From a virus (lineage: Duplodnaviria; Heunggongvirae; Uroviricota; Caudoviricetes), in the IMG/VR virus record IMGVR_UViG_2671180360_000013, positions 1 through 24,008 of that record: 24,008 nucleotides of DNA; one strand, given 5' to 3'. This document shows positions 1-2,109 of the stretch, one piece after another. The notes under the pieces were generated by a model, which worked only from the letters and a program-made list of their open reading frames with translations, made no database searches and was not told the origin of the DNA. The translations under genes and the position numbers were made by a program. Numbering within the stretch: the first letter of the stretch is position 1; every line of letters begins with the position of its first letter.

Positions 1-1248
1 ATGGCACTGAATATTCCATTCAGAAATGCGTACTATCGTTTTGCATCCAGTTACTCATTTCTCTTTTTTATTTCCTGGTCGCTGTGGTGGTCGTTATACG
101 CTATTTGGCTGAAAGGACATCTAGGGTTGACAGGGACGGAATTAGGTACACTTTATTCGGTCAACCAGTTTACCAGCATTCTATTTATGATGTTCTACGG
201 CATCGTTCAGGATAAACTCGGTCTGAAGAAACCGCTCATCTGGTGTATGAGTTTCATCCTGGTCTTGACCGGACCGTTTATGATTTACGTTTATGAACCG
301 TTACTGCAAAGCAATTTTTCTGTAGGTCTAATTCTGGGGGCGCTATTTTTTGGCTTGGGGTATCTGGCGGGATGCGGTTTGCTTGATAGCTTCACCGAAA
401 AAATGGCGCGAAATTTTCATTTCGAATATGGAACAGCGCGCGCCTGGGGATCTTTTGGCTATGCTATTGGCGCGTTCTTTGCCGGCATATTTTTTAGTAT
501 CAGTCCCCATATCAACTTCTGGTTGGTCTCGCTATTTGGCGCTGTATTTATGATGATCAACATGCGTTTTAAAGATAAGGATCACCAGTGCGTAGCGGCA
601 GATGCGGGAGGGGTAAAAAAAGAGGATTTTATCGCAGTTTTCAAGGATCGAAACTTCTGGGTTTTCGTCATATTTATTGTGGGGACGTGGTCTTTCTATA
701 ACATTTTTGATCAACAACTTTTTCCTGTCTTTTATGCAGGTTTATTCGAATCACACGATGTAGGAACGCGCCTGTATGGTTATCTCAACTCATTCCAGGT
801 GGTACTCGAAGCGCTGTGCATGGCGATTATTCCTTTCTTTGTGAATCGGGTAGGGCCAAAAAATGCATTACTTATCGGAGTTGTGATTATGGCGTTGCGT
901 ATCCTTTCCTGCGCGCTGTTCGTTAACCCCTGGATTATTTCATTAGTGAAGTTGTTACATGCCATTGAGGTTCCACTTTGTGTCATATCCGTCTTCAAAT
1001 ACAGCGTGGCAAACTTTGATAAGCGCCTGTCGTCGACGATCTTTCTGATTGGTTTTCAAATTGCCAGTTCGCTTGGGATTGTGCTGCTTTCAACGCCGAC
1101 TGGGATACTCTTTGACCACGCAGGCTACCAGACAGTTTTCTTCGCAATTTCGGGTATTGTCTGCCTGATGTTGCTATTTGGCATTTTCTTCTTGAGTAAA
1201 AAACGCGAGCAAATAGTTATGGAAACGCCTGTACCTTCAGCAATATAG
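1..1248 (+). CDS. MFS permease, LacY/HcaT-like H+ symporter family; likely host gene flanking the prophage
   Basis: 415-aa ORF, highly hydrophobic with about 12 predicted TM segments; N-terminal region resembles LacY/HcaT-type permeases (recalled); GC content host-like. Confidence 0.65.
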   Translation: MALNIPFRNAYYRFASSYSFLFFISWSLWWSLYAIWLKGHLGLTGTELGTLYSVNQFTSILFMMFYGIVQDKLGLKKPLIWCMSFILVLTGPFMIYVYEPLLQSNFSVGLILGALFFGLGYLAGCGLLDSFTEKMARNFHFEYGTARAWGSFGYAIGAFFAGIFFSISPHINFWLVSLFGAVFMMINMRFKDKDHQCVAADAGGVKKEDFIAVFKDRNFWVFVIFIVGTWSFYNIFDQQLFPVFYAGLFESHDVGTRLYGYLNSFQVVLEALCMAIIPFFVNRVGPKNALLIGVVIMALRILSCALFVNPWIISLVKLLHAIEVPLCVISVFKYSVANFDKRLSSTIFLIGFQIASSLGIVLLSTPTGILFDHAGYQTVFFAISGIVCLMLLFGIFFLSKKREQIVMETPVPSAI

Positions 1249-1777
1249 ACGTAAACTTTTTCCGGTTGTTGTCGATAGCTCTATATCCCTCAACCGGAAA
1301 ATAATAATAGTAAAATGCTTAGCCCTGCTAATAATCGCCTAATCCAAACGCCTCATTCATGTTCTGGTACAGTCGCTCAAATGTACTTCAGATGCGCGGT
1401 TCGCTGATTTCCAGGACATTGTCGTCATTCAGTGACCTGTCCCGTGTATCACGGTCCTGCGAATTCATCAAGGAATGCATTGCGGAGTGAAGTATCGAGT
1501 CACGCCATATTTCGCTATCAGGATTCTGTGTGATGGTTACATCGCCCGGCCCAGGGCTGTTTAGTCATCAGCGCTTTCTGACAGTGCTGAGATTTCAACC
1601 TGTTGCAGTAAAAATGAGTAGATATAAGGCAAGTGTGCTGCCAAACCCATCTTTTACGGGGTGAAGGTAGATTTCGTTTGAAGGGTATCTGGTGTCCCCT
1701 GCAGACATCTACTTGAGGCAGCAGGGGATTGATTGGAATGGTGTTTTTTAGGTGTGAGAAATATTTTACCCGCTATT

Positions 1778-1978
1778 TTACCCATTGGCGCGGCTTAAGA
1801 GCTTATTTTTGAATTCACAATGGTCACGATATAACCATCTTGCTCGACCGTGGATAACTTTGGCTTTTGGCAGGTCGCCGGACTTAATCCGGTCGTAGAT
1901 GAAGGTTTTACCAAAGCCAGTATCGGCCATGATGAATTTCAAATCAACCAGTGAATCAGGTTGTAGTTCGTGTTGCAT
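1778..1978 (-). CDS. AlpA-family excisionase / small DNA-binding regulator
   Basis: 66-aa ORF with an AlpA/Xis-like HTH segment (LKFIMADTGFGKTFIYDRIKSGDLP); GGAGAT Shine-Dalgarno 8 nt upstream; sits at the prophage left end where xis is expected. Confidence 0.55.
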   Translation of the reverse strand: MQHELQPDSLVDLKFIMADTGFGKTFIYDRIKSGDLPKAKVIHGRARWLYRDHCEFKNKLLSRANG

Positions 1979-2023
1979 GAGTGCTATCTCCGAATAGGGA
2001 ATCGAACCTGCAAATCAGGCAAG

Positions 2024-2050
2024 AAAAAACCGCCATCAGGCGGCTTGGTG
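2024..2050 (-). terminator. Putative rho-independent terminator (minus strand)
   Basis: Minus-strand hairpin GCCGCCTGATGGCGG followed by TTTTTTCTT, downstream of the zinc-ribbon ORF. Confidence 0.4.
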
Positions 2051-2109
2051 TTCTTTCAGTTCTTCAATTCGAATATTGGTTACATTGTTTTCATATATGA
2101 ATAAATAAA

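Follow-up and report, generated by a model that had tools for sequence, protein, structure and literature searches.

The 529-bp gap between a sucrose permease gene and an excisionase gene (positions 1249–1777) in the analysed stretch of 24,008 nucleotides, hereafter the window, is very probably an ordinary attR, belonging to a prophage that occupies argW of Escherichia coli and uses the IntS/TorI module of KplE1 (CPS-53), HK620, and Sf6. Every feature of this module that can be tested within the window is present, namely TorI itself, the att core, the P arm with its repeats, and the joining of the host side into attB.

The window corresponds to the final 24,008 bases of contig CYDK01000003.1 (GCA_001285005.1, 268,728 bp), with 0 mismatches over 13,805 comparable bases, and runs from the start codon of cscB to the exact end of the contig. 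The contig break falls within the open reading frame of a nanS-p-like SASA esterase that starts at 23176, a multi-copy gene of lambdoid prophages. This assembly break truncates the prophage, whose far end is unassembled. Within the window, the early region retains exo, bet, gam, cI, cro, cII, O, P, and Q as intact open reading frames. The features around the junction are as follows, in order along the window.

1–1248, plus strand: cscB, sucrose/H+ MFS permease (415-aa ORF; Pfam LacY_symp, E 1.3e-193)
1249–1689, no strand: host intergenic DNA, lying between cscB and argW in the unoccupied locus (synthetic attB search)
1258–1301, no strand: perfect 11-nt inverted repeat TTTTCCGGTTG / CAACCGGAAAA, just past the cscB stop codon
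1331–1510, minus strand: DUF4942 relic, N-terminal ~60 residues with an in-frame stop (Pfam PF13708, E 3.5e-9, profile positions 5–62 of 190)
1690–1704, minus strand: attR core TGGTGTCCCCTGCAG, the final 15 nt of the tRNA-Arg(CCU) gene argW, reading CTGCAGGGGACACCA on the minus strand (the sole exact match in the window)
1695–1702 and 1721–1728, no strand: inverted repeat TCCCCTGC (in the core) / GCAGGGGA (in the P arm), with 8-nt arms 18 nt apart
1705–1801, no strand: phage P arm of attR, reaching into the 3' end of torI (2 mismatches to K-12 attR and HK620/Sf6 attP)
1762–1783, no strand: direct repeat TATTTTACCC, two copies at 12-nt spacing (repeat search; HK620 'attP' repeat_region 1441–1463)
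1778–1978, minus strand: torI, excisionase / recombination directionality factor (66 aa; 66/66 identity to PDB 1Z4H, 'Tor inhibition protein'; RefSeq torI)
1985–2023, minus strand: HK620-type 'phage integration' promoter region with a cII-binding site (HK620 features 1664–1702 and 1689–1701, offset 321)
2027–2046, minus strand: terminator-like hairpin between eag and torI (hairpin scan)

The core at 1690–1704 is the site of strand exchange and carries the displaced 3' end of argW, equivalent to the argW fragment 'pawZ' of K-12. The published 16-nt KplE1 core is CTGCAGGGGACACCAT (PMC2951348), and the core of the window is this sequence less its last base (15 of 16 nt); the sixteenth base differs because the host flank is unlike that of K-12. 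In the attL of strain O104:H4 2011C-3493, argW terminates at its 3' side in these same 15 nt. In an alignment of the window with K-12 attR, HK620 attP, and Sf6 attP, the torI gene, the P arm, and the core are nearly identical, with two substitutions in the window. Past the core the sequences diverge completely, the window continuing into the flank of cscB, K-12 into that of dsdC, and HK620 and Sf6 into the P' arm. A tRNA scan of the whole window calls no gene, as the 15-nt argW fragment is too short for the scan.

The host side of the junction is defined by the unoccupied locus. A synthetic attB, composed of window positions 1300–1704 followed by the remaining part of argW and the beginning of yfdC (both from O104:H4), was queried against complete E. 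coli genomes. It finds a 100% identical match in a single piece in many of them, and in 1414 of 5426 genomes a single locus accounts for at least 80% of its length. In the prophage-free strain CFSAN061769, for example, the order is cscA–cscK–cscB–(DUF4942 fragment)–argW–yfdC. Since the reconstructed attB is intact in empty genomes, positions 1249–1689 are host DNA that was in place before the phage, and the core marks the start of the prophage. The initial annotation offered, as one of two readings, a boundary or att site somewhere within the interval, and this suggestion is borne out by the attR core, which the alignment with K-12, HK620, and Sf6 together with the empty site locates to the base. 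Alignment with the uninterrupted host locus, which had been proposed as a check, likewise joins the junction seamlessly to argW at 1690–1704, identifying a true attB.

The permease gene at the window start belongs to the host. RefSeq genomes name it cscB or "oligosaccharide MFS transporter", with cscK, cscA, cscR, and dsdA as neighbours, and in this annotation cscB closes the cscR–cscA–cscK–cscB sucrose locus beside dsdA. It is a chromosomal gene and not phage cargo, and the early description of a host-like permease holds, with cscB standing beside argW in prophage-free genomes as well. That cscB was instead carried in by the phage, with the true prophage boundary upstream of position 1, has a vanishingly small probability. 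The adjacency of gene and prophage is the one point in its favour, but the gene sits in the cscRAKB locus next to dsdA and adjoins argW where no prophage is present, the homology to phage attP has its limits at 1704/1705 (phage side) and 1690 (host side), and published work treats csc as chromosomal genes located at the argW hotspot (PMC11251922). The same work describes this hotspot as a frequent target of lambdoid phages (PMC11251922). Phage cargo had been named in advance as an outcome that would move the boundary, and it is ruled out by the empty-site genomes, in which cscB lies next to argW.

Within the interval 1249–1777 the longest open reading frame encodes 44 aa, in agreement with the statement in the initial annotation that no frame of at least 60 aa separates the permease from the excisionase. 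Pfam searches with the three frames of 43–44 aa found there return nothing. The sole recognisable coding sequence is the DUF4942 relic at 1331–1510, which shows 90% identity to a RefSeq-annotated DUF4942 fragment of strain 2013C-4465. A DUF4942 fragment is also found between cscB and argW in prophage-free genomes, and some RefSeq genomes annotate it as a pseudogene. An older island at the argW hotspot is the likely source of the fragment, and the segment 1331–1510 is host-side debris rather than an integrase remnant. One of the three short frames, at 1654–1785 on the minus strand, matches the position of HK620 hkaB and Sf6 gene 17, which spans the attP core; in the window it continues into host DNA, which makes it a hybrid frame and probably not a gene.

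Immediately downstream of cscB lies the perfect 11-nt inverted repeat at 1258–1301, which is stronger than the inverted repeat near the core. An inverted repeat of 11 nt occurs in 0.5% of shuffled sequences, and the DNA of this segment folds at −10.4 kcal/mol (z −4.9). The repeat is probably the host terminator of cscB. The terminator scan makes no call at 1258–1301, as the 22-nt loop exceeds the limit of the scan.

The minus-strand frames of the interval had been described as reminiscent of int, and the junction as possibly that of a prophage from which int had been deleted. A tblastn search of the window with two queries, IntS and a second lambdoid integrase, finds nothing in 1249–1777, and the best match anywhere in the window (E 0.076) lies inside exo. 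The int-reminiscent frames have no integrase similarity, and the DUF4942 relic remains the only coding trace among them. The int-deleted reading rests on the gene order of lambda, and the interval it concerns is host DNA in prophage-free genomes. A related proposal, in which int once lay between cscB and torI in the lambda-type order and has since decayed into the short minus-strand frames, draws on the absence of a long open reading frame and on those frames, with nothing else to add, and it is improbable in the extreme. Not only do the two queries find no integrase and the single recognisable frame encode DUF4942, but positions 1300–1704 recur base for base next to argW in genomes without the prophage, and int is never found on this side in the IntS/TorI module, whether in O104:H4, 2013C-3342, HK620, or Sf6.

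On the phage side of the core, the P arm leads directly into torI. The published primer attR-IHF2 (PMC3509656) has an exact match at 1782–1801, and this primer site identifies the segment between the core and 1801 as the phage half of the attR that served as substrate in the published in vitro excision assays. The two TATTTTACCC repeats at 1762–1783 are probably arm-type sites for IntS, a putative assignment for which the HK620 annotation and the TAAA motif are the basis; this motif is present in all P' arm sites (PMC2951348). The sequence GGGTAAAA has three copies in the window, two of which lie within 1762–1783.

An inverted repeat straddles the boundary between the core and the P arm. The initial annotation noticed it and called it long; the repeat exists, but its arms at 1695–1702 and 1721–1728 are of 8 nt. 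Perfect inverted repeats of at least 8 nt with a loop of at most 40 nt appear in 18% of dinucleotide shuffles of the interval, and the DNA fold of 1695–1728 has a z-score of −2.0. Both arms are unchanged in K-12 attR, HK620 attP, and Sf6 attP, and O104:H4 carries a substitution in one arm. The repeat is part of the att site and not a separate element, and it may represent either an additional core-type contact of IntS or a chance feature. A promoter scan yields one weak site against 2.6 expected from shuffles and is thus uninformative. An Rfam search of 1200–2400 with E values up to 1 returns just a sub-threshold match to STnc130 at 1928–2055 (24 bits, where the gathering score is 55; E 0.49), which is judged to be due to chance.

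The gene at 1778–1978, described at the outset as excisionase-like, proves to be torI, its product matching the structurally characterised protein at every residue. It is directed outward, toward attR. Upstream of torI, the window at 2010–2050 is 92.9% identical to lambda 29091–29132, just upstream of xis, and the stretch of Sf6 that matches the hairpin region carries the label 'bsq2 boundary sequence'. In several other genomes with the same cscB–torI junction, an extra segment of ~440 bp with a gene for a 114-aa hypothetical protein lies between torI and eag, at the place of window 1979–2109. This segment confirms the torI–eag intergenic region as a mosaic joint. Meanwhile, prophages with identical Ea22, DUF551, and Eag carry alternative integration modules past the hairpin, some with lambda-type Exc and Int next to torS and another with a 428-aa Int next to mlrA. 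These alternative modules beyond the boundary sequence are a clean example of cassette swapping, and a conserved boundary sequence is the point at which the IntS/TorI module, a mobile cassette, is joined.

The gene order of the module provides the explanation for the lack of an integrase at this end. The HK620 record lists on one strand int, the attP arm repeats, the attP core, and hkaC (equivalent to TorI), and Sf6 is annotated likewise. In the free phage, torI, attP, and intS thus follow one another on one strand, and integration at the core separates the two genes. After integration, torI remains at attR, as in the window, and intS comes to lie tens of kilobases from it, at attL and next to the restored argW. 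An intact far end in this genome would read from the late genes through intS, the P' arm, ATGGTGTCCCCTGCAG, and the body of argW to yfdC. By analogy with the published work on KplE1, TorI, IntS, and IHF would assemble on both attL and attR for excision; TorI-, IntS-, and IHF-dependent excision is known for K-12 and HK620 substrates (PMC2951348, PMC3509656). In that system, intS is transcribed from a promoter of its own that overlaps attL, with IntS and TorI acting as repressors of this promoter (PMC2951348), and the module, including its att sites, is conserved among argW-integrating phages (PMC3509656).

Since attP lies between xis and int in this module, the missing int at this end is uninformative and no sign of decay. 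The premise that int lies between att and xis is valid for lambda, but it fails for the IntS/TorI module in HK620, Sf6, O104:H4, and 2013C-3342. Two genomes with a junction equal to that of the window illustrate the arrangement. In O104:H4 2011C-3493, a P22-like prophage runs from the cscB–torI junction to intS–argW–yfdC, and in 2013C-3342, a lambda-like long-tailed prophage with nleG7 cargo runs from the same junction to the same far end. Overall, intS–argW is found at the far end in two of the three related genomes that were followed there; an integrase on the other side had been named in advance as the outcome that would refute the int-deleted reading.

A different explanation assumes that the prophage truly has no cognate integrase and is locked in, the far intS/attL end having been lost or displaced, for example by recombination or inversion between lambdoid prophages, rather than int having been deleted from 1249–1777. 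This is unlikely, though it carries appreciably more weight than the alternatives above. No integrase is detected by tblastn with the two queries across the 24-kb window, and half-module remnants do exist, as in 2013C-4465, which has intS and argW and no torI. Furthermore, strain Z1323HEC0393 (NZ_CP148357.1), alone among complete genomes in matching the window at 100% identity across torI–attR (296 nt), carries a prophage that ends at ybhB/bioA without an integrase. Against this, the attR, torI, and the early genes of the window are all intact, the intS–argW end is seen in two of three genomes traced that far, and intS–attL–argW occurs in more genomes (1863) than torI–attR does (1405) among 5426 complete genomes. 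These counts fit an intS partner for most torI ends, the pairing itself having been checked in three genomes. Moreover, the window and Z1323HEC0393 are related as a mosaic, with ~98–99% identity in blocks, so the two are not the same clone. An intact module, with intS at the far end, is probable in this very genome.

In Z1323HEC0393 itself, the cscB–torI prophage ends with tail fibre, EspS, and NleG genes next to ybhB–bioA, the region of the lambda attB. This strain has apparently undergone a large rearrangement that joined parts of two lambdoid prophages and was roughly symmetric about the terminus.

Among known systems, the junction shares its layout with KplE1 (CPS-53) of K-12, where the order is argW–attL–intS ... 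torI–attR (pawZ)–dsdC. The two share an identical TorI, the att core, and a P arm with two mismatches between the core and the attR primer site; in both, torI is directed outward at attR, with intS known in KplE1 at the other end next to argW. They differ in the host flank, which is cscB in the window and dsdC in K-12, with 15 of the 16 core nucleotides duplicated here. They differ also in the prophage itself, as that of the window looks like a full lambdoid and has genes for recombination, immunity, and replication together with nin and Q, whereas that of K-12 is a 10-kb defective remnant.

In the case of HK620 and Sf6 (Lederbergvirus), the core, the P arm, torI, and the region upstream of it are 97.5–98.3% identical to the window, and the annotated attP core and attP repeats of HK620 map onto 1689–1704 and 1762–1784. 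Other argW phages include Kapi1, HK633, and phiv205-1. However, HK620 and Sf6 are P22-like podoviruses, whereas the early region of the window is lambda-like (exo/bet/gam and O/P) and the relatives that share its junction include long-tailed lambda-like prophages.

The lambda-type cassette, ordered att–int–xis–early genes, resembles the IntS/TorI module in its tyrosine integrase and small winged-helix excisionase, in the assistance by IHF, and in a core with flanking arm sites. The region at 2010–2050 upstream of torI is homologous to lambda DNA just upstream of xis, and a lambda-type xis–int pair occupies this end in sister prophages that have the Ea22, DUF551, and Eag genes in common with the window. 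In contrast, the module in the window has attP between xis and int, which places int at the other end of the prophage, and intS is governed by a self-repressed promoter in attL, unlike the pI/pL transcription with sib control of lambda (PMC2951348). Neither an integrase nor a remnant of one lies between att and xis in the window.

A search of complete E. coli genomes with the whole window finds none with at least 80% cover; the source prophage is a mosaic, and its source is a draft assembly. The 252-aa protein close to the window end has no matching record. In the nin region, a 617-aa open reading frame at 16846–18699 (minus strand) runs on the opposite strand; Ser, Thr, and Asn abound in its N-terminal part, and it has no Pfam match. 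It is adjoined by a TATTTC hexanucleotide array of 13.8 copies at 18934–19016, and the Stx1 prophage of 2013C-4465 carries a related 'hypothetical protein' at the equivalent place. This frame is possibly a moron or an effector-like cargo gene. Meanwhile, the immunity region holds at 8967–10877 (minus strand) a eukaryotic-type Ser/Thr protein kinase (348 aa, Pkinase E 2e-46), a 153-aa frame without a Pfam match, and a DUF3024 protein, and these genes adjoin the LexA-family cI repressor (10887–11600).

A further stretch of argW sequence, from the body of the gene, lies on the phage side. The sequence GGAATCGAACCTGCAA at 1998–2013, within the HK620-type promoter region and just upstream of torI, agrees at every position with the 16 nt of argW next to the att core, and the homology goes no further than the boundary of the core. 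This motif, between torI and eag, is the precise insertion point of an argW-specific island of ~10.5 kb in strains 2013C-3342 and 2015C-4498. The island encodes its own 428-aa tyrosine integrase, and its attP carries the last 23 nt of argW. Islands of this type are usually located at tRNA-Arg, with junctions formed by the last 23 nt of argW, and 228 genomes cover at least 80% of the int–att end of the island. The insertion at the argW mimic shows a heterologous 6-nt stretch, and it looks like a one-off integration at a secondary site, into a tRNA mimic. That the GGAATCGAACCTGCAA copy serves as a functional decoy attB is very improbable. If such a decoy were selected, argW islands could ride in the genomes of IntS/TorI phages or disrupt the phage, and a satellite–helper relation by way of the tRNA mimic would be implied.

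An attR of this well-studied type is a textbook feature, and its presence here points to no new biology. The host/phage boundary is fixed to the base in a csc-positive E. coli at the argW hotspot, with the core at 1690–1704. For the annotation of prophages, calling an element "int-less" from one end is unsafe, because in the IntS/TorI family, as in other modules that carry attP between xis and int, the two genes flank the prophage.
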